A DNA stretch of 64,000 nucleotides from a virus. The DNA is taken from IMG/VR virus record IMGVR_UViG_3300045256_000567, one strand, 5' to 3'. Shown here piece by piece: positions 2,376 through 59,398 of the stretch (positions are counted from its first letter, which is position 1; the number at the start of each line of letters is the position of its first letter). Under the pieces are notes generated by a model. That model searched no databases and was not told the DNA's origin. It saw only the letters and a program-made list of their open reading frames with translations. Made by a program: the position numbers and the translations under genes.

Positions 2376-2378
2376 AAA

Positions 2379-2416
2379 GTGACTACTCCCAATTCTAAAG
2401 AAGTGGGAGTCGTCAC
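2379..2416. repeat. 38-bp RE-RE palindrome P1 between convergent genes; probable bidirectional terminator
   Basis: GTGACTACTCCCAATTCTAAAGAAGTGGGAGTCGTCAC; supplies the TGA stop of 2413..3510. Confidence 0.88.
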
Positions 2417-3510
2417 AAAAACCAAAAACTTTCTATGCTATGATTAATAAGATTATATACAAATATATACCAACAAGAAGTTGCAATTGAAGCAAATTCA
2501 TATATACCATAGTTTGTATCTTTTCCTATAGAGTATGGAAAAATATTCTCCTCCAGAAAATAAGATAATTTTTTAGATTCTTCATTAAATTCAATATTTT
2601 GTTTATATATAAAACTTTTTGCATAAAATGCCATGAAATAGCCACGGAACCAAATTTCAGTATTTGTGTTTGGATATCCTAAATTACTATTTAATTTTTT
2701 ATATATTATTGGAGATAGGTGACTTTTAAAGTCCCTTTCTCTAAAATATTCTTCTAAATATTTTATATTTGAATATAAATAATTTTTGTTTACTCCAATT
2801 TTATTCAAAAATATAGAACCCATAGTGTATGTATTTATATTTCCAGAATTAGAGTTTAAAATTTCTACCAATTTTTCTCCATCCCAAAAATTATTTAATA
2901 TAGAAGATTTCAAAGAATTGGCTTTCGAAAGATATGTAGGATTTTGTGTTACTGCATACACACTTTTTAAAGAAAAGTATGTGTATATGCTATCGTCCAA
3001 TAAATAAGAATTATACACATAAGTATTATCAAAAGAATTGTTTACATATACCCCATACCCTCCTCTTACCAAACCATTTTGTTGAATTTCTGAAACTAAG
3101 TAATCTGCTACAGATTTTATAAAATCTTTATTTTCGTTAGTTTGAAGTTCGTTAATAAAATTATAACTAACAGAAAGAGCTTCTAACATCCATGCAACAG
3201 ACCAATTCCTTATATATTCGTCTGAATGAAATCCGTAACAATAATAATAAAAGTTAAATGAATTTTTTGAATTTAAAAGTTTTTTAGACGTATTAAAAAT
3301 ATTAATGATATTATTTTTATAATAATCATTTTGGGTTACACGATATTCTGACACTAAAGAGAGTAATGTTGATGCTAAATTATTTAAATTAGTTTTAACT
3401 TCCTGAATGGAGCTTGTATTTATAGGAGGCGTAGGTATTGAGGGTGGAGGGGGCGGCGGGCTTCCGCAAATACTTGAACATTGTTGATATGTAATTATGT
3501 GAAGACTCAT
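2413..3510 (-). CDS. Hypothetical protein with CSSIC-polyPro N-terminus and possible (alpha/alpha)6 glycosidase-like domain
   Basis: 365 aa. NPTYLSKANSLKSSILNNFWDG and EIWFRG segments are reminiscent of six-hairpin glycosidase-like folds (weak). Confidence 0.6.
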   Translation of the reverse strand: MSLHIITYQQCSSICGSPPPPPPSIPTPPINTSSIQEVKTNLNNLASTLLSLVSEYRVTQNDYYKNNIINIFNTSKKLLNSKNSFNFYYYCYGFHSDEYIRNWSVAWMLEALSVSYNFINELQTNENKDFIKSVADYLVSEIQQNGLVRGGYGVYVNNSFDNTYVYNSYLLDDSIYTYFSLKSVYAVTQNPTYLSKANSLKSSILNNFWDGEKLVEILNSNSGNINTYTMGSIFLNKIGVNKNYLYSNIKYLEEYFRERDFKSHLSPIIYKKLNSNLGYPNTNTEIWFRGYFMAFYAKSFIYKQNIEFNEESKKLSYFLEENIFPYSIGKDTNYGIYEFASIATSCWYIFVYNLINHSIESFWFL

Positions 3511-3748
3511 AATTTTAAAAAAATTAGGCTTCTCGTATTTAGCGAAGACTTTGTCAGCGCCTTAGTCAAAACATTTTGTGCTGCTGCAATATTCCGATGA
3601 GGGGTTGTATTGCATTTGGTGCAGGTATTGGTTGTATACAGACGGTACTTTAAAGACTTGATCATTACTAAACTATATTGTATCATATTCAGAGTGCGCG
3701 TTTTCATTAACACTACACCTAAAGGTGTAAGCTTTCTGCAAACGTGTT
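3499..3748 (-). mobile_element. Internally deleted tnpB mini-element M1 (LE, fused tnpB 5'/3' ends, degenerate RE)
   Basis: TTAT at 3752-3749, LE hairpin, MIKSLKYRLY fused to TCTKCNTTPHRNIAAAQN, RE ending GAGTCTTCAC at 3499. Confidence 0.9.
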
Positions 3749-6489: not shown

Positions 6490-6513
6490 TTTTTATTCCT
6501 CCAAAATTTTTAT

Positions 6514-6690
6514 AATACACGTTTGCAGAAAGCTTACACCTTTAGGTGTAGTGTTAATGAAAACGCGCACTCTGAATATGATACAATATAGTTTAGTAAT
6601 GATCAAGTCTTTCAAATACCGTCTGTATACAACCAATACCTGTGACAAAGCAGTGACGACTCCCAATTCTTTAGAATCTGGAGCCATCAC
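6514..6690 (+). mobile_element. Mini-element M2 (LE, tnpB stub, RE palindrome P2 at 6653-6690)
   Basis: TTAT at 6510-6513; LE nearly identical to M1; same CTGTATACAACCAATACCTG deletion junction; then GTGACGACTCCCAATTCTTTAGAATCTGGAGCCATCAC. Confidence 0.88.
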
Positions 6691-7057
6691 TTCTTAAAAA
6701 TTTATCTACCCCAAAAGAGTATTCTTTTTGTCTTTCTTCCTCATTTTTTATTTTATGCTGTACATAGGTGTCTACTATTACTGATATTTCATCTGTAAGA
6801 AATTTTAATTCAGATATTAAATCTCTATGCTCGCGAATTGACGTGGCATTATCAATTTTTTTTCTTATAGGATCTATAAAAAATAAATTTATATAATATA
6901 ATAAATCTTCTTCCACCTTCTCACTTCTTTTTTCTACTATATATGTATCAAAATAATATTCACATACATTAATTATTTTTTTCTCACACAAAAACTTGAT
7001 GTGATTAGAAATTGTAAAAATTATAGTTTTTATATCTGAATGATTAATTTCTAACAT
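6671..7057 (-). CDS. Hypothetical protein; C-terminus and stop encoded inside P2
   Basis: 128-aa ORF ending RSDGSRF* within the palindrome. Confidence 0.7.
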   Translation of the reverse strand: MLEINHSDIKTIIFTISNHIKFLCEKKIINVCEYYFDTYIVEKRSEKVEEDLLYYINLFFIDPIRKKIDNATSIREHRDLISELKFLTDEISVIVDTYVQHKIKNEEERQKEYSFGVDKFLRSDGSRF

Positions 7058-10171: not shown

Positions 10172-10879
10172 TCAATCTTCTTGGTACATAGATTTAAACA
10201 GACTTTCTTTAACTTTAATTAAATCAATTCCTTTGCTGTTTATATAAAAATAAATTTCCCCTTTGTTCTTAACAACTTTATGCACAAGATTCCTTTCTAC
10301 GGCTTCGTTTAATGATAAATATACATCCGCTGAAAAAGTTTTTCCCGGTTCCCAGGAAAATTTATCAGATATTTGTATATCTTTTAAAATATATGACTCC
10401 AATATTTCTTTTAATTTTTCATAAAGCTGTTGAGTATTAATCATTGCATCTTTAATGTTGGTAAATTCTGGCATGATAATTCTAACATCATGAATCATAA
10501 AATAAGAAAAAGGTGTGGACAGTCTATTTTCCTTCGGAAAGGATAAATAAATATATACACCACTACTTGCAATAAGAGAATCAGCAACTATAAAAATTTT
10601 TCTATCAAACATTCTTACGAAGCTAATAAATCTTAACGCGTCGTCTACATTACCACCTGATGTTGAAAAAAATAAAACTATAGGAATTGAGTAAAACCTT
10701 AAATTCGAAATGTATTCATAATCAAGTAGAGAAGCGTCCAAATTTGATAGTGAATTAATTAAATCATTAATATTTTCCTCGTTTATGTCTGAAGAAAAAT
10801 AAATTTCGTTTGGAAGCTTAATAACAGAGTTTGCATTATTGCCTTGAGATTCAAAAGACCCAATCTTCATTTTCTTCAT
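10172..10879 (-). CDS. clpP: ClpP-like protease
   Basis: STSGGNV, IASSG and FMIHD motifs. Confidence 0.85.
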   Translation of the reverse strand: MKKMKIGSFESQGNNANSVIKLPNEIYFSSDINEENINDLINSLSNLDASLLDYEYISNLRFYSIPIVLFFSTSGGNVDDALRFISFVRMFDRKIFIVADSLIASSGVYIYLSFPKENRLSTPFSYFMIHDVRIIMPEFTNIKDAMINTQQLYEKLKEILESYILKDIQISDKFSWEPGKTFSADVYLSLNEAVERNLVHKVVKNKGEIYFYINSKGIDLIKVKESLFKSMYQED

Positions 10880-11738
10880 AATACTCTTTCTCCTTAAGAA
10901 TAGTTTGTATATATTTAATTTTTCCGTTATTATCTACTGTTTTATTGAAATTGGGCCAACAAAGTTTTGTAAAAGCGCAATATGAACATTGCCAAGGAAG
11001 TGTTCTTTCAATATAAAATTCTGTTTCTACTTCATTATATACGTATGGTCTTTCTGGAAGTTCGCCAGTTTTAAATCCGTGAATTGCGGACTTAAAACGT
11101 TTTATAGATTCGTCTACAACTGATTGGTTGTAAACTACGGGAACTATTTTTCTATGGCTGGTTCCTTTATTATAAACCCAAAGATATGCTTCGCGTAAAC
11201 CAGTAGCATACATATAAACATTAAGCTGCGCGATGTAGTCTTTGGGAATTTCCCTATCAAATTCTTTCCAAGCTCTTTCGTTTACAGTTTTTATATCTAA
11301 TAAAACATCTTTATTTTTTAGTTTTAAAATCCCATCTATATGTCCAAAAATCTTAAACCCGTCTACTTCAATATACACTTCTTTCTCTTGATCCACAAGT
11401 TCGTTTACTTCAGATATTATTAATCTTTCAACATCATGTACGATATGACCTAGCTGAAAAATACTAATTGCTCTTGGGCTTAATGGTTCCTTTTTCTCAG
11501 GAAAAAGCATAGAGTATGATATTGCTCTAGGGCATTTTCCAGAAGAAGAAAATCTCAACATGCTTTTTAAAGAATCTTCTGGATTATACTTTAAGTTTAT
11601 AGGAATGTTTATTTCTCCTCCATTTTTATATATATGAGACAAATACTCTTCTACAGAATTTAAGACATCACTTATGCTGTTTAAATTTGGAGGTTTATTA
11701 TATTTTTTCTTATTAGATAAGATTTCCTCTATTGACAT
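10851..11738 (-). CDS. PD-(D/E)XK RecB/Cas4-like exonuclease
   Basis: CPR, GHIVH, GHIDG...LLDIKT, QLNVYM, CSYCAFTKLC. Confidence 0.88.
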   Translation of the reverse strand: MSIEEILSNKKKYNKPPNLNSISDVLNSVEEYLSHIYKNGGEINIPINLKYNPEDSLKSMLRFSSSGKCPRAISYSMLFPEKKEPLSPRAISIFQLGHIVHDVERLIISEVNELVDQEKEVYIEVDGFKIFGHIDGILKLKNKDVLLDIKTVNERAWKEFDREIPKDYIAQLNVYMYATGLREAYLWVYNKGTSHRKIVPVVYNQSVVDESIKRFKSAIHGFKTGELPERPYVYNEVETEFYIERTLPWQCSYCAFTKLCWPNFNKTVDNNGKIKYIQTILKEKEYYEENEDWVF

Positions 11739-11790
11739 ACATATATAATAACATCAAATAAATGTTTTGGGAAGACCCCCCCTAATTTAC

Positions 11791-12033
11791 AGAACAGTTT
11801 GCAGAAAGCCTACACCTAAAGGTGTAGGATGAATGCAAAAATTGAAATTCTATGGTATAATAAACTTGTGCAAAAGAAGCACACCAAATCCTACAAAGCT
11901 GAAAATGCTGGTAGGTACTTGAATTATAAGATTCAAGGTAATCATCGGGAAAATAAGAAAATACCGATAATGGCTTGGACGGAGCCTTCGTTAATTACGA
12001 GAAGCCCAATTCTTTAGAATTGGGAGTCGTCAC
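11791..12033 (+). mobile_element. Non-coding mini-element M3 (LE, promoter, omegaRNA, RE)
   Basis: TTAC at 11787-11790, LE hairpin CCTACACCTAAAGGTGTAGG, RE ending TCAC at 12033. Confidence 0.9.
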
Positions 12034-12053
12034 AAAATAAAAATAAGTATGCC
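11868..12053 (+). ncRNA. Stand-alone TnpB omegaRNA 1 (scaffold ~11868-12033 plus guide AAAATAAAAATAAGTATGCC)
   Basis: TG-g-TATAAT at 11853-11861; seven successive hairpins; 3' 62 nt identical to the RE of tnpB copy 2; identical copy at 56079-56256. Confidence 0.75.
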
Positions 12054-12612
12054 TACTTATGTTATTTCTTATACAAGTTGTTCAAGCATTTGCACGCCTC
12101 CACCTCCGCCACCACCTGTTCCAGAAAGCTTTGAAATTTTATTAAATAAAGGTACTATTTATCTTAAAAATATCCCTCAGTCTCCACAAAAACAAATAAT
12201 AGAAGTGTTTTTTGAGTACCTAGATAAATATTTAGTAAAAAATATAGATACACAATCTGAAAACAATTATGTTATTTCTACAAAAATTGAAAACGCAAAT
12301 ATTTATTATTATGGTAACGTATCTATTACTTTTTACGAAGATATAAGTGATCTATGTAATTTTTCTATAAATAAACATTATATAAATCAAGATGACATAT
12401 ATCCATCATATATTAGTGTAGAAATACAATCAATAGATAATGATGCTGAACTGGGATATATTTATATATTATATTCAAGTAATACTAAATCTGAAAAATA
12501 TATTATTCATATACAAAATAATATCTCAGAGTTAATTAATAAAAGTATACTTATATATGATGAAGATGCTGATAATATAGATATAAGCGCATTCTGTGTA
12601 AATACAATTTAA
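12049..12612 (+). CDS. Hypothetical protein with CSSIC-polyPro N-terminus
   Basis: MPTYVISYTSCSSICTPPPPPPP, similar to the N-terminus of 2413..3510. Confidence 0.75.
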   Translation: MPTYVISYTSCSSICTPPPPPPPVPESFEILLNKGTIYLKNIPQSPQKQIIEVFFEYLDKYLVKNIDTQSENNYVISTKIENANIYYYGNVSITFYEDISDLCNFSINKHYINQDDIYPSYISVEIQSIDNDAELGYIYILYSSNTKSEKYIIHIQNNISELINKSILIYDEDADNIDISAFCVNTI

Positions 12613-20311: not shown

Positions 20312-20333
20312 AATTTTTTTAATATTTGTTAAA

Positions 20334-20440
20334 GTGACGACTCCCAATTCTTTAGAATTGGGAGTTGTCACTTCATATACAAGAAATTTAGTTGCATTCA
20401 TCCTACGCATAAAGGCGTAGGTTTTCTGCAAATCAATGTT
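20334..20440 (-). mobile_element. Minimal 107-bp LE+RE element M4 (RE palindrome P3 at 20334-20371)
   Basis: TTAT at 20444-20441, LE hairpin CCTACGCCTTTATGCGTAGG, palindromic RE ending GTCGTCAC at 20334. Confidence 0.88.
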
Positions 20441-20454
20441 ATAATAAAAACAAG

Positions 20455-28475: not shown

Positions 28476-29703
28476 GTGACGACTCCCAATTCTAAAGAAT
28501 TGGGCTTCTCGTAATTAACGAAGGCTCCGTCCAAGCCTTAGCCAAGATATTTTGTGCCGCTGCAATATCCCGATGAAGGGTTGTATTGCATTTTGCACAG
28601 GTATAGGTACGTATCCAAAGAGGATGCTTTTCTCGATTACCGCAAACAGGACAGTCTTGGCTTGTGTATTTTGGGTCTACTTTTATTACTTGCCTACCAG
28701 CTTCTTCCGCTTTGTAGGCAAGTATTGCTAGGAATTGCGCCCAACCTGCATCTAGGACACCTTTAGCTGTTCTAGTTTGGGCGAGTTGTTTTATATCTAG
28801 GTCTTCGTGTACTATGGTTCCATATTTATTCACCAAGTCTTTTGCTACCTTGTGATGAAAATCCTTTCTTTGGTTTGCTATTTTCTTGTGGATTTTAGCA
28901 ACCAGTCTTTTAGCTTTGTTCCTTCTGTTGCTACCAGGTTTTCTTTTTGAAACTATTTTCTGTGCTTTGGAGAGTGTTTTTTCATACTTCTTGAAATACC
29001 TAGGAGCAGGAACCATTTCACTGTCAGAGGTGGTTAGGAAGTTTGGGTTAGTACCAAGGTCTATTCCAACTGCATCTTGGTTTACAGGAAGTTTTTTTGG
29101 TTCTGTGATACAGGTGAAAATTATATACCATTCATCATTCTCCCTTTTTATAGAAGCTGTCTTTATTTGACCTTCAAGCGGTCTGTGAAACTTGCATTTG
29201 ATAGAACCAATCTTATGCACCAAAACTCTGTTTTTACCTTCTTGAATCTTGATTCCTGTTACGTTTGCTTGAGGAAAAGTAAAGCTGTCATATCTTCCTT
29301 CGCCTTTGAACCTTGGATATCCTGGTGTTTCACCTTTTTTGATACGCCTAAAAAACCCTTGGTAGGCTTTGTCTACCCTTTTCAATACATCCTGAAGAAC
29401 CTGTGCATTTACATTCTTGTATTCTGGACGCTCTTCCTTCAAACTAGGTAGTTGGTTAGCTTGTTCATAGTAACCAATGCTTTTCTTGTGGGTTTTGTAT
29501 AATTCCTTTCTTTTTTCCAAAGCAGTATTGTACAGTTGACGACACAGAAACAAGGTTTTCTCTAAATCCTTGATCTGAGGCTTGGTTGGATACAGACGGT
29601 ATTTGAAGGACTTGATCATTACTAAACTATATTGTATCATATTAATAGTACGCGTTTGCATTCATCCTACACCTAAAGGTGTGGGTTTTCTGCAAACTGT
29701 TCT
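28476..29703 (-). mobile_element. IS200/IS605-family tnpB-only element, copy 2
   Basis: TTAT at 29707-29704, LE hairpin, tnpB, RE ending TCAC at 28476. Confidence 0.92.
28492..29619 (-). CDS. tnpB: TnpB (copy 2)
   Basis: Same motifs as copy 1; start set to MIKSF. Confidence 0.96.
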   Translation of the reverse strand: MIKSFKYRLYPTKPQIKDLEKTLFLCRQLYNTALEKRKELYKTHKKSIGYYEQANQLPSLKEERPEYKNVNAQVLQDVLKRVDKAYQGFFRRIKKGETPGYPRFKGEGRYDSFTFPQANVTGIKIQEGKNRVLVHKIGSIKCKFHRPLEGQIKTASIKRENDEWYIIFTCITEPKKLPVNQDAVGIDLGTNPNFLTTSDSEMVPAPRYFKKYEKTLSKAQKIVSKRKPGSNRRNKAKRLVAKIHKKIANQRKDFHHKVAKDLVNKYGTIVHEDLDIKQLAQTRTAKGVLDAGWAQFLAILAYKAEEAGRQVIKVDPKYTSQDCPVCGNREKHPLWIRTYTCAKCNTTLHRDIAAAQNILAKAWTEPSLITRSPIL

Positions 29704-34824: not shown

Positions 34825-34845
34825 TTCTGCAAATTTTGCTATAAT
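34825..34845 (+). promoter_or_regulatory. LE-remnant extended -10 promoter upstream of the portal operon
   Basis: TTCTGCAAATTTTGCTATAAT matches the LE-junction promoter pattern but has no hairpin. Confidence 0.6.
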
Positions 34846-34867
34846 ATAATAGAAAATTTATCGTAAA

Positions 34868-35527: not shown

Positions 35528-38515
35528 ATGCTAGAAGATGTTATCAAATCAATAATTAATGTAACTCCAGATAAGCAAAAAAAACCTGTATTATATTTAA
35601 ATTCTAGAGTAAATCAAGCGTTATCTTTGGGAAGAGGAAAAGATTATCCAGGTTTTAAACCTTTACTTACCTATAGAGCGTTGGCCTGGAACTCTACAAT
35701 AGTATATTCAATTATTATTTTTAGAAGAAACCAGGTATTGAAAAAAGAAAAAATTGTAGTTCCATATAATAATCAAGAACCTACATTCAGATTTTCTATA
35801 CTTGAATATTCTCCTGAATCTCTTTTATATTTACCTTCTATAGATGAAGCTGATGCTATCGCAATATTAAAGCTTTATAGAAAATATAAAAATTCTGATA
35901 TAAAAGAACCGTTCACAATTCAAAACTTTAAAAATAAATTAAATGAATCGGAAAAAACAATATTAAATCACATAGAAGAAAAACATATAGAATATTATTT
36001 AAATAGAATAAGAGACACAAAAAAAATAATAAACTTTTTAAACAAACCAGACCCATATTTTTCAGAAGTTAATAATTGGGAACATTTGCTTTCAATGGTG
36101 CTTGATGATATATTGACAATAGATAGAGGAACAATTCTTAAAGTTAGAGATGATCGTGGAAAATTAATTTCTTTAGTACCAGTTGACGGTACAACAATAA
36201 AACCTGTTGTAAATGAAAATAATGGAGTAGTTGAAAACTATGTTCAAGAAGTTGATGGAGCCATTGTTAATGAATATATTGATAAAAAAGATATTATTTT
36301 ATTTAGACAAAATATAACTCCAGATGTTTATATGTATGGATATTCAATAGCACCAATAGAAATACTTTATAAAGCTATACTTTCTGATATTTTTATTGAT
36401 AAAGGAAACTTAGATTATTATAGAAAAGGTGGGTCTATACCAGAAGGTGTAATTACTATAGAACCACCTTCTGTAAAAGATGGAGATGTATATCCACAAT
36501 TAAGCAGAGAACAGCTTGAATCAATACAAAGACAACTTCAAGCTATAATGATGGGTGATTATACGCAAGTTCCAATTTTATCTGGAGGAAAATTTACTTG
36601 GATTGATTTTAAAGGAAAAAGGAGAGATATGCAATTCAAAGAACTTGCTGAATATGTGTCAAGAAAGATATGCGCTGTTTATCAAGTTTCACCTCAAGAT
36701 GTAGGAATAACTTCTGATGTAAATAGAGCTACAGCAGAAGTAATGGCTTCGATGACTAAAGCTAAAGGATTAGAGCCATTATTAGCAAATATATCAAGAG
36801 GATTTGATTCTGTTATAGATGAATTTAGACCGCAAAGAGATATTAAATTATGGTTTAAAGAAGATGACCTTGAAAAAGAAAAAGAATGGTGGTCAAGTGT
36901 TCAAGGAATGTTAAATTCTGGTTTTAGAACAATTAATGAACTTAGAATGGAAAAAGGTTTAGATCCAGTACCTTGGGGTGATGCTCCATTTTCTGGATTA
37001 CGTAATTGGGAGCCGCCTAAACCAGAAGAAAATAAAGAATCTCCTGGTAGCGGTATTCCTGGGGGAGCGCTTGGGGGTATGCCTGGAATGGATATGGGTG
37101 GTATGCAAGGTATTTTAGGAGGTGCACCTAATGCTTCTTCAGGTCCAGGTGGTGGTGCTGGAGCATCGGGAGGTTTAGGTGGTTTAGAAAGCCTTTTAAA
37201 TACTCCAGATGTAGGACAAGATCAAGGTGCACAAGGCTTAGATGCATTGAAACAGATGCTTCAAAAGTCTTTTGATGTTAAAGATACAGTTGAATTAATA
37301 AATGACAACAACTATCTTAATGACGAAGAGTTACTTAAGAGAGTTTTAAAAACAATAGGATCTGAATCTATAGTAGAATTCATATCTAACGACTTAGAAA
37401 ATGATTTAGAAGTCACACCAGAAGAACTTATTCAACACAATTTTAATAGTAAGATTTCTAATGGAAAATTAGTTATAGGGGAAGGTGGGTTGTTAGAAGT
37501 ACATCTTTTAGCAAATAGTAATTTTGATTTTGATTATAAAAAAATATTAGAATTAATGTCATTACATTACGATTGCTCTTCTTTACCAAAAATTTCTATA
37601 GAAAGTAATGAAATAGATAAATTCTCAAAAATAAATTTACATATATGCACTCCAATGCAAGGAAATATTGTAACGCTTTTAGATAAGCTAAATAGAGATT
37701 TTTATAAAAAACCAGATGTACTATATATACATTCAGACCAAAAAATTTTTGAAGAAATTTTACCAGTAAAAGAAAAAAATAATTTAATTTTGTATTCTCT
37801 ACTACCAGAAGACTATAAAGAAAATAATTTCAATAAACTTGTCGAGATATATGGGTATGATGAATATGCGTTCCTGTTTTCACCCAATAAATATATAGAT
37901 TTAATTAAAGAAGAAATGTTCTCAAATGAAGAGTTAAAAAATAGGCTTTCATGTGTTTACGGCCCACTATCTCTGTTTGCTATCGCTAAAGCAACAAATA
38001 AATATGGGGAAAATTTTATAATGCATTTATTAAATTCAAAAAATAAACAAGTGAGCACTATAACTAAGTATGTATTACTAGTAAATTCATATGATTTTGA
38101 AAAAGAATATAATGAAGAAGATATAAAACTAGATTTATTAGAAAATGAAAATAACTTTAATTTAAATAAACTATACGCTAATATATATATTGAAAATTTA
38201 GAAGAAGCTATAGAGTACTTAATTAATTATCTACACTCTATCAACGAAGATTCAGATTATGAATTTTCTAGATTTTTAAATATTATAAATTATGTTATTT
38301 TTGAGCAAGGCAATCAAGAGATTGCAACTAGTTTTATTAGTAAATTAATGAATGTTGATCAGACTGTAGATTCACTAGATTTTTTTGAATTGGTAGAAAA
38401 ATGTATTAATAATATAAAAAATCCTATAACAAAGTCATTGGTAAGAAAACACATGTTGGGAGAGAAATTAGAAAAAGAAGAGTATAAATTGATAGAAGAT
38501 TATGTTACAATCTAA
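35528..38515 (+). CDS. Portal protein with Gly-rich linker and long C-terminal extension
   Basis: LVPVDGTTI, YGYSIAPIE, DMQFKE...ICAVYQVSPQDVG, TINELRMEKGLDPVPWGD (HK97-type portal motifs). Confidence 0.9.
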   Translation: MLEDVIKSIINVTPDKQKKPVLYLNSRVNQALSLGRGKDYPGFKPLLTYRALAWNSTIVYSIIIFRRNQVLKKEKIVVPYNNQEPTFRFSILEYSPESLLYLPSIDEADAIAILKLYRKYKNSDIKEPFTIQNFKNKLNESEKTILNHIEEKHIEYYLNRIRDTKKIINFLNKPDPYFSEVNNWEHLLSMVLDDILTIDRGTILKVRDDRGKLISLVPVDGTTIKPVVNENNGVVENYVQEVDGAIVNEYIDKKDIILFRQNITPDVYMYGYSIAPIEILYKAILSDIFIDKGNLDYYRKGGSIPEGVITIEPPSVKDGDVYPQLSREQLESIQRQLQAIMMGDYTQVPILSGGKFTWIDFKGKRRDMQFKELAEYVSRKICAVYQVSPQDVGITSDVNRATAEVMASMTKAKGLEPLLANISRGFDSVIDEFRPQRDIKLWFKEDDLEKEKEWWSSVQGMLNSGFRTINELRMEKGLDPVPWGDAPFSGLRNWEPPKPEENKESPGSGIPGGALGGMPGMDMGGMQGILGGAPNASSGPGGGAGASGGLGGLESLLNTPDVGQDQGAQGLDALKQMLQKSFDVKDTVELINDNNYLNDEELLKRVLKTIGSESIVEFISNDLENDLEVTPEELIQHNFNSKISNGKLVIGEGGLLEVHLLANSNFDFDYKKILELMSLHYDCSSLPKISIESNEIDKFSKINLHICTPMQGNIVTLLDKLNRDFYKKPDVLYIHSDQKIFEEILPVKEKNNLILYSLLPEDYKENNFNKLVEIYGYDEYAFLFSPNKYIDLIKEEMFSNEELKNRLSCVYGPLSLFAIAKATNKYGENFIMHLLNSKNKQVSTITKYVLLVNSYDFEKEYNEEDIKLDLLENENNFNLNKLYANIYIENLEEAIEYLINYLHSINEDSDYEFSRFLNIINYVIFEQGNQEIATSFISKLMNVDQTVDSLDFFELVEKCINNIKNPITKSLVRKHMLGEKLEKEEYKLIEDYVTI

Positions 38516-50751: not shown

Positions 50752-50780
50752 ATTATAGCACGTTTGCAGAAAACCTACGA
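50752..50780 (-). promoter_or_regulatory. Half LE forming a TG-c-TATAAT promoter; also the guide region of tnpB copy 3
   Basis: TTAT-AGCACGTTTGCAGAAAACCTACGA directly abutting the RE at 50781. Confidence 0.75.
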
Positions 50781-51950
50781 GTGACGACTCCCAATTCTAA
50801 AGAATTGGGCTTCTCGCAAGAAGCGAAGGCTCCGTCCGAGCCTTAGCCAAGATATTTTGTGCCGCTGCAATATCCCGATGAAGGGTTGTATTGCATTTGG
50901 CGCAGGTATAGGTACGTATCCAAAGTGGGTGTTTTTCTCTGTTACCACAAACAGGACAATCTTGGCTTGTGTATTTTGGGTCTACTTTTATTACTTGCCT
51001 ACCAGCTTCCTCCGCTTTGTAGGCAAGTATTGCTAGGAACTGTGCCCAACCTGCATCTAGGATACCTTTAGCTGTTCTAGTTTGAGCAAGTTGTTTTATA
51101 TCTAGGTCTTCGTGTACTATGGTTCCATATTTATTCACCAAGTCCTTTGCTACCTTGTGATGAAAATCCTTTCTTTGGTTTGCTATTTTTCGATGTACCT
51201 TGGCAACTAGTTTCTTAGCCTTGGTTCTTCTGTTGCTACCAGGTTTTCTTTTTGAAACTATTTGTTGTGCTTTGGCAAGCCTATCTTCAGACTTCTTGAA
51301 ATACCTAGGAGCAGGAACCATTTCACTGTCAGAGGTGGTTAGGAAGTTTGGGTTAGTACCAAGGTCTATTCCAACTGCATCTTGGTTTACAGGAAGTTTT
51401 TTTGGTTCTGTGATACAGGTGAAAATGACATACCATTCATCATTCTCCCTTTTTATAGAAGCTGTCTTTATTTGACCTTCAAGCGGTCTGTGAAACTTGC
51501 ATTTGATAGAACCAATCTTATGAACCAAAACTCTGTTTTTACCTTCTTGAATCTTGATTCCTGTTTTGCTTACTTGAGTAAAGGTGAAGCTGTCATACCT
51601 ATTTTCACCCTTGAATCTTGGGAAACCAGGTGTTTCACCTTTCTTTATACGCCTAAAAAAGCCTTGGTAGGCTTTATCTAACCTTTGTAGCACATCCTGA
51701 AGAACTTGACTATGTATATTCTTGTATTCTGGAAACTCTTCCTTTAGTTTAGGAAGTTGACTATTTTGCTCGTAACGGCTAATGGTCTTTTTGGAACTTT
51801 TGTACACGTCACGTCTTTTTTCCAAAGCAGTATTGTACAATTGACGACACAGAAACAAGGTTTTCTCTAAATCCTTGATCTGAGGCTTGGTTGGATACAG
51901 TCGGTACTTGAAAGACTTGATCATTGCTGACCTTTATTATACCATATTCA
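50781..51950 (-). mobile_element. tnpB element copy 3: intact RE, no canonical LE
   Basis: RE ends at 50781; upstream TGAATATGGTATAAT promoter as in copy 1; only an LE hairpin arm remains, at 52081-52093. Confidence 0.8.
50797..51924 (-). CDS. tnpB: TnpB (copy 3)
   Basis: All RuvC and zinc-finger motifs intact. Confidence 0.96.
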   Translation of the reverse strand: MIKSFKYRLYPTKPQIKDLEKTLFLCRQLYNTALEKRRDVYKSSKKTISRYEQNSQLPKLKEEFPEYKNIHSQVLQDVLQRLDKAYQGFFRRIKKGETPGFPRFKGENRYDSFTFTQVSKTGIKIQEGKNRVLVHKIGSIKCKFHRPLEGQIKTASIKRENDEWYVIFTCITEPKKLPVNQDAVGIDLGTNPNFLTTSDSEMVPAPRYFKKSEDRLAKAQQIVSKRKPGSNRRTKAKKLVAKVHRKIANQRKDFHHKVAKDLVNKYGTIVHEDLDIKQLAQTRTAKGILDAGWAQFLAILAYKAEEAGRQVIKVDPKYTSQDCPVCGNREKHPLWIRTYTCAKCNTTLHRDIAAAQNILAKARTEPSLLARSPIL

Positions 51951-52093
51951 GGAATGTCACACTATTCAATCGCTTGTACATTATACCAAAAATTTATTAC
52001 CATTGTATTATGTGAGGGAGTCCATGTATCCCCGCTTTGAAAAGCGGGGAATTATAGCTCCCCCACACCCCCTCAATTTTTTAAAGGTGTAGG

Positions 52094-52131
52094 GTTACAA
52101 TTCCCAGTTCTTTAGAACTGGGAATCGTCAC
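52094..52131. repeat. RE palindrome P4 with compensatory substitutions
   Basis: GTTACAATTCCCAGTTCTTTAGAACTGGGAATCGTCAC; supplies the TGA of 52128..55253. Confidence 0.85.
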
Positions 52132-55100
52132 GGGTTTGGATGCAAAACAAGCACATAAATTTCATTGCTTATTGAATAGGGAAGGTTTAGCATTCTATAA
52201 CTTTGCGATGGCGTGTCAATTATAAGTTGATAAGGAATATATAAATTTTGTATAGAAGTATCTAAAATTCTTAGATTATAACAATAAGAGGTAGAAGTTA
52301 GAAAAACAGGGCGTATAAATTCATATGTACTTGAATCCAAAGGATCGTTTCTAGTATCAAAACCAGAGGATTTATTAATAATTAAGTTTGCGTCGCCATC
52401 TGCATTTAAAGCTATTATGTAATAAGTTTTTCCAGATTCAAATTTATATCCATGCGGGAAAAGTTTTTTATCACTAATAAATAGTGAATTATCGCTATTT
52501 ATATTATAGTTATTAATATCTAAAAGCAATTCATTAATTACGGCATTTTTATTACTTATTAAGTAATTAGTAACATTTAGACTAAAACTTGAAAATTTAT
52601 TTATATAATATTGATCATTAGAAATGACTTCTTCATTGTAAAGAAAATTCTCTATACATATATCTAAATGTTGAGATAAAAAAGAAAAGTAGCAAGGCAA
52701 ATAATAATTAAAATCAAAACTACTGTTTAACAAGTTTTTAAACGAAAAATTGTATGTATATATGAACGTTGCCGGAATTAAATCCTGTAAATCTTGGTTT
52801 TCAGGGTTGATAACATCAATATTAAAAACATATGGTCTAAAAACATGTACGGTACTTCTTGGAGATTTATCGGGGCTAGAAGAAAATTCGGCTAGAGATA
52901 CCCGTCCATTAAAATAGTTTAATATTTGACTAGTTGAGAGGTAATCGTTATTATTTAATTTAATATTTAAATTTAAATTTTTATCTTTAAAAACAATTGG
53001 TAAATACTCAACAAAAATAAAATCAAATACGGGGTAGGATAAAGAGGCATCATTTGTTGCCTGTGTTTTTGAAAAACTTTCACCTTTGAATTTTATTCTT
53101 ACAGAAAGCGGATCGTAAACATATGTGTCCTCGCTTAAGTATGTAGTGTATCCTCCTACGTCAATAAATGAAAAATATTCACTGTTTAATATATAAGGTT
53201 TAATATTGTTATTAACGTAATTAGACAATGGTAAATCTAAAGGAGGTATAAAATCAACTATATTATTATTTATTGATATAATATCAGTTTTTGAAGTAAA
53301 CTCATTATCAGAATTAATATTTGATGGTCCAAAATATGAGAATAATGAAAAAAATCTTGTAGGTGAATATTTGTTGCCATAATTAAATATATCAGAAAGA
53401 AATTGTAAAAACTCATTTAAGGCATTTGAGTTATTTTTTAAGGACACCAATGGAACGTGTGTAAAAACATTACGTACTATTGACAAATCCTGGTGAGATG
53501 GTAGCTGAGTTAAAAACATCATATCTTCAGATTGCCATGATGAGGAAGATACATCAACGCCTGGGTACGTTTGTGTTAAATAATTTAATGTTAAAGAATT
53601 TAAACTAGATATGAAATCATTAAAATTATTAAAATCTGGAATATCCAAAGTAAACTCTCTGGGAGTTTGATCATACGCGGGAACATACGAATATAAAATA
53701 AATCTGTTTGGGTTGTTTTTGTCGTTATTATTCTTATACAATACCACAACCGGTTTGTTGTTACTTGATAGACTTGTCAGATCAGAAAAATAAAAATTGT
53801 TTAAAACCCAAGCCTTTAAATTGCTGTAGGTATTTTTATTAAAATAATATTTTTTATCATTTTGAGCAAACTCATCCTCAACGAAAAGCTTTAGTGCTTT
53901 ATATACAAACAATCTCCCAAAATTTATAGATGGAAGACTTATAGAACCGGAATAAGATCCTAAGCTACTAGAATATGTACCTAAAGAAAGTATACTATTT
54001 ATAGTACTTGTAGAAAAATTACTTATTACATTATATATTGCGGGATAAAAATTATCTAAAAAATTTTTTGCAGTTAGGAAAATTCCCGAGTCTATTTGTG
54101 GATTTAAAAATTCAAATATACCCAATTTATTTAATGGATTTTGGTTATTTATTGTATTAAAAGAATATGTAAAATTTCCCGAAAAAGATAAATAATCTTT
54201 ATCAAAATGAAAGCAAACCTTTACTGGAACATTAGAAGTTTTTACATCAATTGTGCAATAAGTATCATTATTATTAGAAAATACAGCGCCATTATCAGTA
54301 TAAAAATCCTTAAATCCATTTTGTCCGCCTGTATTAAACCCAAAATTATTTACTTCTGGGGAGTATCCGAAAAATTTATTAGTTCCTATTGGTACAGATT
54401 CCATATTTTCAGCCGCAGTAATATTCTTAGAAAAGTTTAATGATGTTAGCGGACCTTCTGGATTTATTTTGTAAAATATTTCTTTCCCCGGAATTAATGA
54501 TAAAAAATAAAAATCATTTAAGTTATTACTATATTTACTATTCTCGTAATAAAAATTACTTATAGAAAAATTATTAATAGTAGTTTCATAAATATTATCT
54601 GAATTTGCTTTATAATTGCCGTCGTAGGTAAAAGGTAAGTATAAACTATATATGTAATATTTTGGATATATATTTTGTCCTATGCTTGGAGATACAAAAT
54701 TATAAGTTGGATCAATAGAATCATTTCCATATACAACAACAAAAATATCTATAGTAAGTATTCCTGCAAAAGAAAAACCCACATTAAACAAGTTTGTATT
54801 GTAAGTACTATCAAAAGAGCTTTCTGCCACGCCTATGGATTTATTTATATCTTGAATATTATAATTAATAGAAAAGCCGTTGTAGTAATTGTCTACAGGA
54901 TGATTATCCGGCAATTTGTCAAGTATTAAATTAACTAAACTTAAATCTACACCGGTATTACTGGGATCAATAAAAATGTACTTATTATTAATTTCATCAA
55001 AAATGGCAAATTTAGGAAGAACTTTTTCTTTAGTTAAATTGTTTAATAAAAAAGAAGAAACAACTTGCTTTAAAGTACTTTTTGTAGTTATATCAACAAA

Positions 55101-55253
55101 ACCCTTTCTTTTCCATGTCGGGGATTTTATATAATAAACATCTGGATAGGTATGTATTTTTATTGCTTCCCTATCAGGAAAAACAAAAGAAGAATTACCT
55201 ATGATATCTGGTGATGTGTATTCATTAATATCTGAACAACCTAAAGTTCTCAT
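52128..55253 (-). CDS. Large probable virion structural protein
   Basis: ~1041 aa, N/S/F-rich; true start MRTLG lies 7 nt after an LE-junction TATAAT. Confidence 0.75.
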   Translation of the reverse strand: MRTLGCSDINEYTSPDIIGNSSFVFPDREAIKIHTYPDVYYIKSPTWKRKGFVDITTKSTLKQVVSSFLLNNLTKEKVLPKFAIFDEINNKYIFIDPSNTGVDLSLVNLILDKLPDNHPVDNYYNGFSINYNIQDINKSIGVAESSFDSTYNTNLFNVGFSFAGILTIDIFVVVYGNDSIDPTYNFVSPSIGQNIYPKYYIYSLYLPFTYDGNYKANSDNIYETTINNFSISNFYYENSKYSNNLNDFYFLSLIPGKEIFYKINPEGPLTSLNFSKNITAAENMESVPIGTNKFFGYSPEVNNFGFNTGGQNGFKDFYTDNGAVFSNNNDTYCTIDVKTSNVPVKVCFHFDKDYLSFSGNFTYSFNTINNQNPLNKLGIFEFLNPQIDSGIFLTAKNFLDNFYPAIYNVISNFSTSTINSILSLGTYSSSLGSYSGSISLPSINFGRLFVYKALKLFVEDEFAQNDKKYYFNKNTYSNLKAWVLNNFYFSDLTSLSSNNKPVVVLYKNNNDKNNPNRFILYSYVPAYDQTPREFTLDIPDFNNFNDFISSLNSLTLNYLTQTYPGVDVSSSSWQSEDMMFLTQLPSHQDLSIVRNVFTHVPLVSLKNNSNALNEFLQFLSDIFNYGNKYSPTRFFSLFSYFGPSNINSDNEFTSKTDIISINNNIVDFIPPLDLPLSNYVNNNIKPYILNSEYFSFIDVGGYTTYLSEDTYVYDPLSVRIKFKGESFSKTQATNDASLSYPVFDFIFVEYLPIVFKDKNLNLNIKLNNNDYLSTSQILNYFNGRVSLAEFSSSPDKSPRSTVHVFRPYVFNIDVINPENQDLQDLIPATFIYTYNFSFKNLLNSSFDFNYYLPCYFSFLSQHLDICIENFLYNEEVISNDQYYINKFSSFSLNVTNYLISNKNAVINELLLDINNYNINSDNSLFISDKKLFPHGYKFESGKTYYIIALNADGDANLIINKSSGFDTRNDPLDSSTYEFIRPVFLTSTSYCYNLRILDTSIQNLYIPYQLIIDTPSQSYRMLNLPYSISNEIYVLVLHPNP

Positions 55254-55260
55254 AAAAGAA

Positions 55261-55353
55261 ATTATAGCAAAGTTTGCAGAAAACTTACAAAATATGTTTG
55301 CATTCATCCTACGCTTAAAAGCGTAGGCTTTCTGCAAACATATTTTGTAAAAT
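55261..55353. promoter_or_regulatory. Nested LE cluster acting as a divergent promoter
   Basis: LE head (+) at 55266, full LE (-) from 55346, 18-bp inverted repeat at 55285-55302/55333-55350. Confidence 0.75.
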
Positions 55354-55359: not shown

Positions 55360-56067
55360 ATGGAAAAGAAAATTAAATTAGAACTTAAAAAGAAACTTAT
55401 AGATCTAGTATCTCAATTTGAAGTTTCACGAGATTGGGGTAGGGTTGCTGGAAATTTTGATGGACAAATTTTGTCTTACGGTCCTTTACAGTGGAATATT
55501 GGACAAAGCACTCTTTTTTACGTTTTAAAAAGGATTCCTCAAGAAGTTTTGGAAAAATATCTTGGTTCTGATTTTGTTAAAAGTTTGTCCTCAAATTCTT
55601 CATTGAGGTATTTTGTTTTACACAATATCTTAGGCAAAAATGGAAATGTTCTTCCTGGTTGGTCTAAAAAATTTTCTGATCTAGCTAAAGAGCCTTCTGT
55701 TATATCCGCATTTGTAGTTTCTGCGGAGCCTTACTTTATAAAATCTAACGATTGTTTAAATGAACTTGGTTTTACTACAGAAAGAGGAGCAGCTTTATGT
55801 TTTGACATAACTGTACAAAATGGTGGTCTAAGAAAAGATCATAAAATTTTATATACTAGGTATATAAGCACTAAAAATCCGCAAAATGAGTGGGAAAAAT
55901 ATAAAATACTAGCAAATGTAATTGCTGAATTAGCTAACCCACAGTGGAAAAATGATGTATTAAATAGAAAACTTACCATTGCACTTGGTAAGGGTTCTGT
56001 GCATGGAGTAAATATAGATTTAGAAAAAGATTTTGATATTTCTTATAATCGAACCTGGTACATGTGA
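55360..56067 (+). CDS. Probable endolysin (lysozyme-like)
   Basis: GNFDGQILSYGPLQWNIGQSTL, FDITVQNGG, DVLNRK, G.VHG motifs typical of putative phage/bacterial peptidoglycan hydrolases. Confidence 0.7.
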   Translation: MEKKIKLELKKKLIDLVSQFEVSRDWGRVAGNFDGQILSYGPLQWNIGQSTLFYVLKRIPQEVLEKYLGSDFVKSLSSNSSLRYFVLHNILGKNGNVLPGWSKKFSDLAKEPSVISAFVVSAEPYFIKSNDCLNELGFTTERGAALCFDITVQNGGLRKDHKILYTRYISTKNPQNEWEKYKILANVIAELANPQWKNDVLNRKLTIALGKGSVHGVNIDLEKDFDISYNRTWYM

Positions 56068-56244
56068 CGACACCGCACGTGACGACTCCCAATTCTAAAG
56101 AATTGGGCTTCTCGTAATTAACGAAGGCTCCGTCCAAGCCATTATCGGTATTTTCTTATTTTCCCGATGATTACCTTGAATCTTATAATTCAAGTACCTA
56201 CCAGCATTTTCAGCTTTGTAGGATTTGGTGTGCTTCTTTTGCAC
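56059..56244 (-). ncRNA. Stand-alone TnpB omegaRNA 2 (scaffold to 56079 plus guide GTGCGGTGTCGTCACATGTA)
   Basis: 56079-56256 is the reverse complement of 11856-12033; driven by TG-c-TATAAT. Confidence 0.75.
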
Positions 56245-56250
56245 AAGTTT

Positions 56251-56334
56251 ATTATAGCACAGTTTGCAGAAAGCCTACTCCTAAAATCACAGGCTTTCTG
56301 CAAACTTGTATTGTAAGAACATATAGTGTATACT
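56251..56334. promoter_or_regulatory. Back-to-back LE pair forming a divergent promoter
   Basis: TTAT-AGCACAGTTTGCAGAAAGCCT...AGGCTTTCTGCAAACTTGTATT-GTAA; rightward TTGTAT-N17-TATACT. Confidence 0.72.
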
Positions 56335-56341: not shown

Positions 56342-56914
56342 ATGGGCTTCTCACTATTTTTAGACGTTGCCTTAAGAAATACAGGTCTCGCATTAATTGA
56401 GGATTTGAACATCATAAATTTAGATATTATTAAATATAAAAACAGTTTTGACGGAATAGATTTTGTATCTATAGACGGGCACAGAAAGTTTTTAGTTAAA
56501 AACTTTAAAGAATTAAAGGAAAATTATAAAATAAAAAAACTAGATAGAATTTTTTTAGAAGCAGATGTTTTTGGATTTAGGAAGGGGGGGTTTAAAATAA
56601 AAGAACTAATGACTATAGTAAGAATTAATTATGCATTTTCATTACAGCAAGTTTTTAATTTAAATGCTAAGTATATAAAATTTATACCAGCACATATTTG
56701 GAAAAAAGAACTTTTCGGGTCTTCCAATATAAAAAAGCCTTTATATAAAGACTTTGTTATTAGTAAAGTTGAAGAAATAACATGCAGCACATTAAATAAA
56801 AAAATTTCTCACGATATAGTTGATTCTTTAGGAATCTTTTTATATGATTACAAAATGTCTTGCGGGAATTGTAATGATAATCTCGTTTTTTCTCCTCCTG
56901 ATGGACAATACTGA
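56342..56914 (+). CDS. RuvC-like Holliday junction resolvase
   Basis: FLDVALRNTG, IFLE, WKK, HDIVDSLGI. Confidence 0.75.
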   Translation: MGFSLFLDVALRNTGLALIEDLNIINLDIIKYKNSFDGIDFVSIDGHRKFLVKNFKELKENYKIKKLDRIFLEADVFGFRKGGFKIKELMTIVRINYAFSLQQVFNLNAKYIKFIPAHIWKKELFGSSNIKKPLYKDFVISKVEEITCSTLNKKISHDIVDSLGIFLYDYKMSCGNCNDNLVFSPPDGQY

Positions 56915-57001: not shown

Positions 57002-59398
57002 ATGGATATATTAGATCGTTATTTATTAGTTGACGAAGGTAAATACAACTATGAGGAAATTGATAACTTTTTGATTGATATTTTTAACAAATTTTCAAAC
57101 AACAGATCAAAGTTTATAAGTAGCTTTGAAGAAGCATTAAATTATGGAGAACCAGAAAATTATCTTGATAAAGAAACTATTGATAACGCATTTAATGCTT
57201 TAAATAAAAGCGGATTAATTGATCAAATTAAAAACTCTCTAAAAAGTTTTTACAAAACAGAAGATTTAATAGAAGATTTCTTTTTACAAAATATTTCATA
57301 TGAGGTTTATTCTCAAAAATATCAATTAAAGTACAAAGACATTGACAACGAAATGTATCCCGTTGATAAAACTCCATTTCATACTATAGCTAGGGTAGCC
57401 CTAGCAGTATCTTTGGTTAGTACTAGGTACAGTACTAAAATTGATTACAAGACATTTAGAAATTTGTTTGTTAACTTTTTTTACATGCTCGCTATGGGAT
57501 ATAGCGCTGGTGGTGGAAGGATTATGGCAAATGCTGGTTCTTCAGTTTATAAAACTGCTACTTCTCTCATTAATTGTACTGTTATGAGTCAAATCCCTGA
57601 TTCTATGGAAGGAATTATGGATGTTTTAAAAGATGCCGCGCTTTCTTTGAAAAGCGGAGCTGGCGTTGGTTATGATTTTTCAACTATTAGACCTAAAGGT
57701 TCATTTGTGCAAGGTGCAGGTGCAGATACCTCGGGCGTTACATCTTTTGTAGAAATTTATGACAAGATGTGCTCTACTATTATGTCTGCTGGAGGCAGAC
57801 GAGGAGCACAAATGGCTGTTATTGATATACAGCATCCTGAATCTATAGAATTTTTTCAAGCAAAAAGAAAAGATGGAACTTTACGTTACTTTAACATTTC
57901 CTTGGCTCTAACGGATAAATTTATTAATGCAGTGAAAAATGATTTAGATTTTGAGCAATGGTTTTGGGAGTTTGATTCTTTTATTCCAAAAGATGAGTTG
58001 ATAAGAGATATGACGTTTAAGAATGAAAAAGTGGCAATTGTAAAAAAAGAAAGAACACCATTTGATTATTCTGATTTTAATTATTTTGTTTTTGAAGATT
58101 CTCATATGCTAATGAAATATGAAAAAGTGACTGAAGGGTTTGTAAAAGTTTATAAAAAGAAAGTATACAATAACACAAAGGCATCAGAACTATATGATGT
58201 AATAATGAATTCTACATATGATTATGCAGAACCCGGAATCATCTTTATAGATAGAATTAACGAAAACAACATTTTAAATGAAAAAGAATATATAAGAACA
58301 ACCAATCCATGCGGTGAGCAGCCTTTACCACCATATGGTTCGTGTAATCTTGGATCTATTTTTGTTCACCGATTCGTAAAATCTCCTTTTTCCAAAGAAG
58401 AACATAATAATAATTTTGATTTTGAAAACCTGGAAAAAACAGCATTTTTAATGAACATTTTCCTTGATTTTGTCAATGATATTACTAATTTGCCCTTGGT
58501 AGATTTAAAAAGAAACGCATACGTAAAGCGTAGACATGGACTTGGAATTTCTGGAATTGCAGATTTGTTTATTATGAGCGGATTAATTTATGGAGAAAAA
58601 GAATCTATTGATTTTACTGAAAATATTATGAAAACAATACAAAAAAGCTCGCTTATTGCAAATATATATATGTCCAACCTTATTTCTCCTGCACAGATTG
58701 ATATTAGCGTAAAAGATTGGTTTAGAGTTTTTCCACATTTAAAAAACCACGTTAATGAAATATCTTCCATATTTTCTGAGGATAAAGATAGTATAGAAAA
58801 TCTTCCTCTAAGATTTTCTCACGGAACTTCTATTGCCCCTACCGGAACTATGTCATTAACTTGGGGAAACAATGTAGCTAATGGTATCGAACCAGTATTT
58901 TCTATATCGTATCTAAGAAACATAAGAGTACCAGGAAAGAAAACTAAGGTTCAGGAAGAAGTATTTGATTTTGCAGCAATTCTTTATAAAAATATGTTTG
59001 GTAATTTTAAGAAAGAAGATTATTTTGTAACAACAGATGAGATTACAGTACAACAACACGTTAATGTGCAAGCTGCGGCACAAAAATATGTAGATTCTGC
59101 TATTTCAAAAACCTGCAATATTCCAACTGATTATCCTTTTGAAGATTTTAAAAAGGCTTACCTATCAGCACATGAAATGAGGTTAAAAGGATTTACAACA
59201 TTTAGATTTAATCCAAAGTTTTCTGTAGGAGTTCTTGTTAAAGAAAAAGATTTAGAAAATATGTCTATTGAGTTTGAGTTAGATAATGGAGAAAAAATTG
59301 TAGTAAAAGGTTCTGAAAAGGTGTTTTATGATGGGGAAGAGCATGTAGCTGCAAACCTTTATGAAGCAATAAAAGAAAACATCTATGGAAAAATGTGA
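57002..59398 (+). CDS. nrdJ: Class II (adenosylcobalamin-dependent) ribonucleotide reductase, large part
   Basis: GGRIMANAG, INC, RRGAQM, TNPCGEQPL, APTGT, AISKTCN. Confidence 0.9.
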   Translation: MDILDRYLLVDEGKYNYEEIDNFLIDIFNKFSNNRSKFISSFEEALNYGEPENYLDKETIDNAFNALNKSGLIDQIKNSLKSFYKTEDLIEDFFLQNISYEVYSQKYQLKYKDIDNEMYPVDKTPFHTIARVALAVSLVSTRYSTKIDYKTFRNLFVNFFYMLAMGYSAGGGRIMANAGSSVYKTATSLINCTVMSQIPDSMEGIMDVLKDAALSLKSGAGVGYDFSTIRPKGSFVQGAGADTSGVTSFVEIYDKMCSTIMSAGGRRGAQMAVIDIQHPESIEFFQAKRKDGTLRYFNISLALTDKFINAVKNDLDFEQWFWEFDSFIPKDELIRDMTFKNEKVAIVKKERTPFDYSDFNYFVFEDSHMLMKYEKVTEGFVKVYKKKVYNNTKASELYDVIMNSTYDYAEPGIIFIDRINENNILNEKEYIRTTNPCGEQPLPPYGSCNLGSIFVHRFVKSPFSKEEHNNNFDFENLEKTAFLMNIFLDFVNDITNLPLVDLKRNAYVKRRHGLGISGIADLFIMSGLIYGEKESIDFTENIMKTIQKSSLIANIYMSNLISPAQIDISVKDWFRVFPHLKNHVNEISSIFSEDKDSIENLPLRFSHGTSIAPTGTMSLTWGNNVANGIEPVFSISYLRNIRVPGKKTKVQEEVFDFAAILYKNMFGNFKKEDYFVTTDEITVQQHVNVQAAAQKYVDSAISKTCNIPTDYPFEDFKKAYLSAHEMRLKGFTTFRFNPKFSVGVLVKEKDLENMSIEFELDNGEKIVVKGSEKVFYDGEEHVAANLYEAIKENIYGKM

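Follow-up and report, generated by a model that had tools for sequence, protein, structure and literature searches.

A probable solo omegaRNA gene present as two identical inverted cassettes in a phage with three tnpB genes

Introduction

Guide RNAs that stand apart from an effector gene have been described before. The passages of PMC10691335 that cite Altae-Tran 2021 report that stand-alone omegaRNAs work in trans with compatible effectors, and in the same part of that source these RNAs appear as evidently mobilised. PATEs (palindrome-associated transposable elements) of IS200/IS605 likewise often encode omegaRNAs (Meers et al. 2023, PMC10055086). In ISDra2 TnpB (PDB 8H1J, 8EXA and 8BF8; PMC10097598), the omegaRNA overlaps the 3' end of tnpB, its 5' part is dispensable, and a pseudoknot involves its last nucleotides, with the pseudoknot loop pairing with those that immediately precede the guide. 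Trim1 and Trim2 were engineered from this RNA by removing the part that overlaps coding sequence and capping the helix with a short loop; the activity of such trimmed omegaRNAs is intact or improved (PMC10097598).

Here we describe two cassettes in a 64,000-nt stretch of large-phage DNA, referred to below as the window. The window has a G+C content of 28.8% and contains two tRNAs, and its DNA found no match, near or distant, in the phage collection. Its genes include the following.

35528-38515, portal gene
57002-59398, ribonucleotide reductase gene

We read the sequence at 56079-56259 (minus strand), with a probability of about 0.6, as a solo omegaRNA gene, that is, a derivative of the phage's IS605-family TnpB elements that has neither tnpB nor a left end. 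So read, the cassette is a well-documented example of the already-known stand-alone omegaRNAs and not a new kind of system. Like the published examples, it is an effector-less locus that lies beside effector loci of the same family in one genome, with the guide outside the right end, and its use in trans by a compatible TnpB would be expected. Whereas the part of PMC10691335 cited above presents stand-alone omegaRNAs as evidently mobilised, the cassettes have no left end of the family and use a phage-type promoter, reside in a phage and form an inverted pair that bounds a probable inversion. With PATEs they share a short, protein-less and TnpB-derived make-up, in which the right end and omegaRNA scaffold are kept and the non-coding middle is shortened. 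PATEs, however, keep both ends (as in L123 and L126, ~348 bp, at different sites), whereas the cassettes lack a canonical left end and their upstream parts differ. The likeness to ISDra2 lies in the overlap between omegaRNA and the tnpB 3' end, which is seen in the resident copies, and in a cassette loop that could pair with the last nucleotides before the guide; the scaffold sequence is different, and the TAM is TTGAT in ISDra2 but probably TTAGA-like in the phage. As in Trim1 and Trim2, the coding-overlap part has been removed and the helix is capped by a short loop. Those two RNAs are engineered, whereas the trimming of the cassette is natural and leaves the 5' stem in place.

Results

Two cassettes identical from the -10 box to the right end

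The cassettes and their main parts are located as follows.

11853-12053 (+), cassette 1: promoter 11853-11861, scaffold 11862-12033, guide 12034-12053
56079-56250 (-), scaffold of cassette 2: 172 nt from the -10 box to TCAC, identical to 11862-12033 (+)
56251-56259 (-), predicted extended -10 promoter of cassette 2, TGC-TATAAT, from a reading of the sequence
56059-56078 (-), guide position of cassette 2: the 20 nt past the right end, of which 56064-56078 form a putative 15-nt right-end relic

Alignment established that 11856-12033 (+) and 56079-56256 (-) are exact reverse complements, with 178 of 178 positions equal. Identity extends from TATAAT, with TATAATAAA, common to both cassettes, as its left limit, to the right-end motif TCAC. 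The flanks diverge from the first base past TCAC, and 5' of TATAAT the copies show only scattered agreements, which include the TG of the extended -10 box; a repeat search lists the pair as 184 nt at 99%. The preliminary description had named the exact reverse complementarity and both of its limits, and the alignment of the two copies confirmed them. Its view that conservation covers the -10 box and the RNA, and not a whole mini-transposon, also holds, because the hairpins upstream of the two cassettes are 73-77% alike and the canonical left end is absent.

The guide of cassette 1 differs from that of cassette 2 and reaches into the start codon of ORF 12049-12612. In cassette 2, which reads along the minus strand, the flank extends over the stop codon of ORF 55360-56067. 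This overlap supports one half of an earlier claim that cassette 2 runs antisense into the 3' end of a lysin gene; the other half, the identification as a lysin, was not sustained, since Pfam and PDB sequence searches with this ORF returned nothing. The ORF matches only PHROG 30036, which is of unknown function, and PF01374 is carried by distant homologues (34-35% identity).

The positions of the cassettes bear on a quite improbable reading in which the cassette is a cis-acting regulatory RNA, copy 2 acting antisense over the 3' end of ORF 55360-56067, copy 1 forming a structured 5' leader of ORF 12049-12612, and the scaffold serving as a stabiliser. The orientation of the cassettes and their overlap with both ORFs are as a cis-regulator would require, and a terminator-like hairpin lies ~90 nt downstream on the cassette strand (55972-55992). 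This site, however, is inside coding sequence and may be a chance match, and the guide window overlaps only ~9 nt of the coding sequence of ORF 55360-56067. Moreover, one identical sequence would need opposite roles in the two contexts, and the relatives offer no support for such regulation.

The scaffold matches the omegaRNA of the resident tnpB genes

Three full-length tnpB genes are present in the window.

28476-29619 (-; ORF 28492-29619), tnpB with built-in omegaRNA, copy A: Pfam domains; 64.4 bits with covariance model R1
390-1533 (+; ORF 390-1517), tnpB with omegaRNA, copy B: 91% amino-acid identity to 28476-29619; R1 66.5 bits
50781-52075 (-; ORF 50797-51924), tnpB, copy C: canonical left end at 51995-52075; R1 65.8 bits

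All three ORFs carry the Pfam OrfB_IS605, TNB and HTH domains, and the proteins are 90-91% identical pairwise. They align over their full length to ISDra2 TnpB (E 1e-55) with conservation of the RuvC D/E/D residues, and in this alignment D187/E272/D351 and the zinc finger are present in each of the three. Their nearest relatives come from Meiothermus, Thermus and Calidithermus, with 64-67% amino-acid identity, and from two viral contigs. The TnpBs of a 29% G+C phage thus have their closest kin in high-G+C thermophilic Deinococcota, and the omegaRNA ends are conserved nearly base for base, which suggests horizontal transfer between very different hosts.

The scaffold was aligned pairwise with the final 260 nt of copy A (28476-28735), and two blocks correspond directly.

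56079-56140 (-), 3' module of three helices plus AGTCGTCAC: 62/62 positions equal to the tnpB right end 28476-28537
56197-56222 (-), 5' stem-loop from inside the tnpB coding region: 23/26 positions equal to -243..-218 of the full-length copy

Sharing these 62 nucleotides at its 3' end, the tnpB at 28476-29619 is the likeliest of the three to encode the cognate nuclease of the cassettes. Relative to 28476-28735, ~115 nt that encode the zinc finger have been exchanged for a 26-nt hairpin, an extra 21-nt hairpin is new at the 5' end of the scaffold, and small deletions have turned the 3' strand of the long-range helix into a local hairpin. The scaffold is predicted to fold into seven hairpins (-51.3 kcal/mol; z -4.9 against shuffles). 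The antisense strand folds nearly as well (z -4.6), and folding energy therefore does not separate the two strands.

Covariation in the family supports the helices. In the 5' stem, compared across 16 relatives that include archaeal ones, 86.5% of cells are paired and 7 of 12 pairs change on both sides; none of 500 shuffles reached this covariation score, and slid controls collapsed. Among relatives, covariation is likewise seen in three helices of the family omegaRNA: terminal, long-range and TTCG..CGAG. Because both copies are identical, the covariation is that of the family, and the cassette itself adds none that would indicate selection on its rebuilt middle. At the 3' side, the tnpB 3' ends and right ends of relatives contain the same module, terminating in GGAGTCGTCAC, and the cassette scaffold ends in AGTCGTCAC, as in all relatives. 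Near the 3' end, just before the guide, the scaffold has a CGUC with which its loop GACG can pair, and this putative pseudoknot would occupy the position of the one in ISDra2.

The covariance model R1 was built from 15 foreign sequences (Deinococcota and metagenome relatives), with none from the window. It finds exactly five strong full-length matches in the window, namely three tnpB-linked scaffolds at 64-66 bits and the two cassettes, each at 60.3 bits. Cassette 2 is matched at 56079-56142 over model positions 1-91 of 91 with an E-value of 2e-10. A model of purely foreign origin thus bears out the proposal in the preliminary description of an omegaRNA-type scaffold without tnpB.

Several tnpB-less derivatives in the window are in decay (3499-3747, 6511-6696 and 20333-20444). 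One of them contains the first 40 nt of tnpB and a degenerate scaffold (26.6 bits), and the other two consist of a hairpin and a right-end palindrome only.

A real, if unlikely, alternative is that a tnpB element decayed and the cassette is its neutral leftover, without RNA function of its own. The phage would then be using the promoter (for ORF 12049-12612, at copy 1) and a hairpin stack that possibly ends transcription of ORF 55360-56067 (at copy 2), and the identity of the copies would reflect very recent duplication or recombination. It fits such a leftover that the antisense of the first hairpin of the cassette has a terminator-like score on the strand of the upstream gene, and that the three decaying derivatives and the right-end palindromes also lie at gene ends and junctions. 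However, copies in decay score at most 27 bits with R1 (3499-3563, 26.6 bits), whereas the cassettes are pristine over all helices. Also against a neutral leftover, the deletion spared the covarying 5' stem and the whole 3' module, and local helices re-formed where the long-range helix lost its partner.

Neither cassette carries the left end of the family

TTAGA precedes the left end of the family, a G+C-rich block that forms a hairpin of its own and is shared with Thermus and Meiothermus elements; it is conserved from Thermus to 51995-52075. This is its single canonical occurrence in the window, and it is absent from both cassettes. In two relatives, L035 and L038, a Y1 tnpA lies upstream of tnpB, and the family is therefore IS605-type; tblastn with the TnpA proteins of these two relatives detected no tnpA in the 64-kb window. 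With no canonical left end at the cassettes and no tnpA in the window, we therefore regard the cassette as a solo guide-RNA gene and not a mini-transposon, and it would be immobile for TnpA because the canonical left end is absent. A PATE has both family ends and exists as copies identical from end to end; here one of the ends is missing, and identity is confined to the interval from TATAAT to TCAC.

Among metagenomic relatives, tnpB-less elements of ~348 bp were observed at three sites, L123:5633-5990 (-), L126:4280-4628 (+) and L122, and they are nearly identical. Consisting of a left end, a non-coding omegaRNA and a right end, these are true PATEs of the TnpB family to which the cassettes belong. 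A first pattern search of the metagenomes returned nothing, and a second pattern returned only G+C-rich relatives.

At four places in the window (2378-2422, 6652-6696, 20333-20377 and 52093-52137), the terminal hairpin of the right end is extended to a near-perfect 38-nt palindrome. These palindromes lie mostly at gene 3' ends or after tRNA-Met, and they may be terminators or fold-back repair products.

Predicted cassette promoters and the hairpins upstream

One further feature lies between cassette 2 and the adjacent gene.

56263-56304 (no strand), symmetrised hairpin: TTTCTGCAAAC on both arms, one toward the cassette and the other toward ORF 56342-56914

The earlier remark that the promoter part upstream of TATAAT has been swapped between the copies proved correct. 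Cassette 1 has TGG-TATAAT-AAA in a tnpB-promoter context, as upstream of 51924. Cassette 2 has the phage-type TGC-TATAAT-AAA behind the symmetrised hairpin, an arrangement of the TTTCTGCAAAC..TGCTATAAT type that is also seen at 50752-50775, and its -10 box shares its form with phage promoters at 50752-50760, 55261-55269 and 34838-34846. A -35 box is absent, so that the predicted promoter is called from the extended -10 box only; the cassette promoters are missing from a simple sigma-70 scan, in which a -35 box is obligatory. In copy 1, which shares its strand with ORF 12049-12612 and lies 15 nt ahead of the start codon of that gene, the promoter would drive the gene. This is as expected of a neutral leftover kept for its promoter, but a promoter by itself has no need for 172 nt of conserved structure.

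Both cassettes and the tnpB copies at 390 and 28492 are preceded by a hairpin with arms TTTGCAGAAAGCC / GGATGAATGCAAA, the outward one of which supplies the adjacent phage gene with a promoter (TTTCTGCAAAC, 1-5 nt, TG-n-TATAAT). The neighbouring TTTGCAGAAAGCC hairpins had been taken for the left end of the transposon, and we rejected them as the canonical left end of the family after aligning the 50781-52075 copy with Deinococcota relatives, which contradicts that assignment. They may belong to a second, IS608-like family as its left end, or they may be a promoter module of the phage. Their layout is TTAC or TTAT, then 19 nt ending in AAAG, then the hairpin; we take this to recall the left end of IS608. 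The TTTGCAGAAAGCC/GGATGAATGCAAA hairpins are absent from two tnpB-free phage relatives, G001 and G002, the former having TTGACA-type promoters at the matching junctions, and IMG/VR returned no instance of the promoter-hairpin module.

Eight copies of the hairpin were noted in the window, at 299-351, 3690-3742, 6511-6563, 11787-11839, 20380-20432, 29644-29696, 55286-55338 and 56252-56304, and their stems covary (CGC/GCG vs CAC/GTG). In the region 50781-52137, tnpB copy C seems to split a phage hairpin: a half that ends in TTTAA precedes the left end, and its counterpart follows the right end. The guide of this copy (50761-50780) is the 3' arm of a promoter hairpin, and it matches the hairpins at 327, 11815, 20415, 29679, 55321 and 56280 with 1-3 mismatches in 16 nt.

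Guide sequences

Within a window of 28.8% G+C, the 15 nt past the right end of cassette 2 are G+C at 10 of 15 positions. Of the nine occurrences of the motif GTCGTCAC in the 64 kb, eight belong to right ends or to their palindromes; the remaining one is found 7 nt past the end of cassette 2. The preliminary description was thus accurate in calling this guide G+C-rich and in noting a second end motif within it. Beyond these 15 nt, the guide at 56059..56078 runs antisense to the final codons of ORF 55360-56067 and to its stop codon. Compared with the right-end termini of two relatives, L034 and L070, the 15 nt agree at 13/15 positions. In every right end, the distance from TTAGA in the terminal loop to the terminus is 15 nt, equal to the length of the segment after cassette 2, and TTAGA also precedes the canonical left ends. 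The simplest reading is that the 15 nt are a relic of an older right end, into the loop of which another element once inserted. Because the 27 right ends of relatives include no tandem ends, this nested-insertion origin rests on one case.

The same doubled motif had been likened to a one-unit repeat-spacer, and GTCGTCAC placed twice at 7 nt is not to be expected by chance in A+T-rich DNA. Even so, we find a nascent CRISPR-like unit (right-end motif, 7-nt spacer, right-end motif) hardly credible. Direct repeats of CRISPR are ~20-40 nt with spacers of similar size; here the repeat is 8 nt when exact and 15 nt when approximate, the gap is 7 nt, both far below any repeat or spacer size, and the motif repeat of cassette 2 occurs once. 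Furthermore, in alignment the 15 nt correspond to the terminal stretch of a right end, and a doubled motif of this kind is found in no other right end of the window and in none of the 27 of relatives.

With or without a TAM, targets of the guides were sought across the window, allowing up to 3 mismatches, as well as in two related phages, and only the cassettes' own flanks were recovered; a search of IMG/VR found neither guide, nor the right-end 29-mer. The suggestion that the cassettes form a family acting as a functional guide library finds no support in these results, which fit a neutral leftover. Within the phage itself, the guide of cassette 2 has four mismatches to the resident right ends in the seven TAM-proximal positions. 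Since ISDra2 does not tolerate double mismatches in positions 1-12 (PMC10097598), this guide should not cut the resident right ends.

Gene order and a probable inversion between the cassettes

Cassette 1 has the following gene as its upstream neighbour.

10851-11738, exonuclease gene, adjoining cassette 1

We compared the window gene by gene with the relative G001, the proteins being 40-90% identical. Gene order is broken at ten points or more, every one of them marked by a hairpin or by a piece derived from tnpB. At cassette 1 the exonuclease gene meets the ORF 12049 block, at cassette 2 ORF 55360-56067 meets the ORF 56342 block, and the two inverted cassettes bound a 44-kb segment, 12034-56078. 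Inverting this segment restores the pairs seen in G001, in which the exonuclease gene accompanies ORF 55360-56067 and the ORF 12049 block accompanies the ORF 56342 block. The present order therefore probably came from recombination between the inverted copies, a case that is good but, given the number of rearrangements relative to G001, is not proof. Because the inversion returns both sides to the arrangement of a tnpB-free relative, it is also probable that the copies are kept identical by recombining with each other. Gene conversion accompanying this recombination probably explains why the cassettes are 100% identical whereas the tnpB copies are 90-92% alike in the repeat search, and recent copying or gene conversion, as put forward in the preliminary description, fits both this difference and the inversion-bounding pair. 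The 44-kb segment may flip by homologous recombination. The perfect identity could, on the other hand, be simply the result of a very recent event.

Discussion

Based on these comparisons, we propose a plausible course of events for the solo omegaRNA gene. First, the extended -10 promoter would give rise to an RNA of ~165-170 nt plus guide, which a resident TnpB would bind in trans. The bound TnpB would then cleave DNA in which the 16-20 nt flanking the right end are found beside a TTAGA-like TAM. Whatever adjoins the right end would act as the guide; in cassette 2 this is first the 15-nt relic and then the 3' end of the neighbouring gene. The relic, from an older right end, would have been left when one element inserted in the TTAGA-bearing loop of the terminal hairpin of another. 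TnpA would be unable to move a cassette of this form. Homologous recombination or gene conversion would have given rise to the two copies and would hold them identical, and the 44 kb between them would have been inverted by this recombination.

A more far-reaching version, which we consider improbable, is that the phage has uncoupled guide-RNA genes from transposition. Gene conversion would then keep identical a dispersed, array-less set of trans-acting guides for the three TnpBs. The guide of cassette 2, a TTAGA-like TAM followed by the 15-nt relic, would be directed against the terminal hairpin of a TnpB element that is older or a rival, or, during co-infection, against sister phages that have no cassette. 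In addition, the inverted pair would serve as a 44-kb flip switch, and one copy would have been re-wired to a phage-type promoter.

The general picture of TnpB systems is unchanged by the proposed solo gene, as stand-alone omegaRNAs are already published. What is particular to these cassettes is the natural trimming, the loss of the left end, the swap of promoters, the use of a putative right-end relic as guide, and the pair that bounds the probable inversion. They would provide a clean natural omegaRNA freed from coding overlap, in which the 5' stem, a pseudoknot-capable loop and three 3' helices are kept. This trimming follows the logic of engineered compact TnpB guides and marks elements that are likely to be important in this TnpB clade. 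The cassettes further suggest that a solo guide-RNA gene need not be a transposon to persist, and that recombination can use such genes as substrates and so reshuffle a phage genome.

An observation of a different kind concerns the region next to copy C. An ORF of 1044 aa within 52128-55262 has no family match and is flanked by a hairpin promoter and a right-end palindrome. Its counterpart in G001 is only 25% identical, compared with 60-90% for the neighbouring genes.
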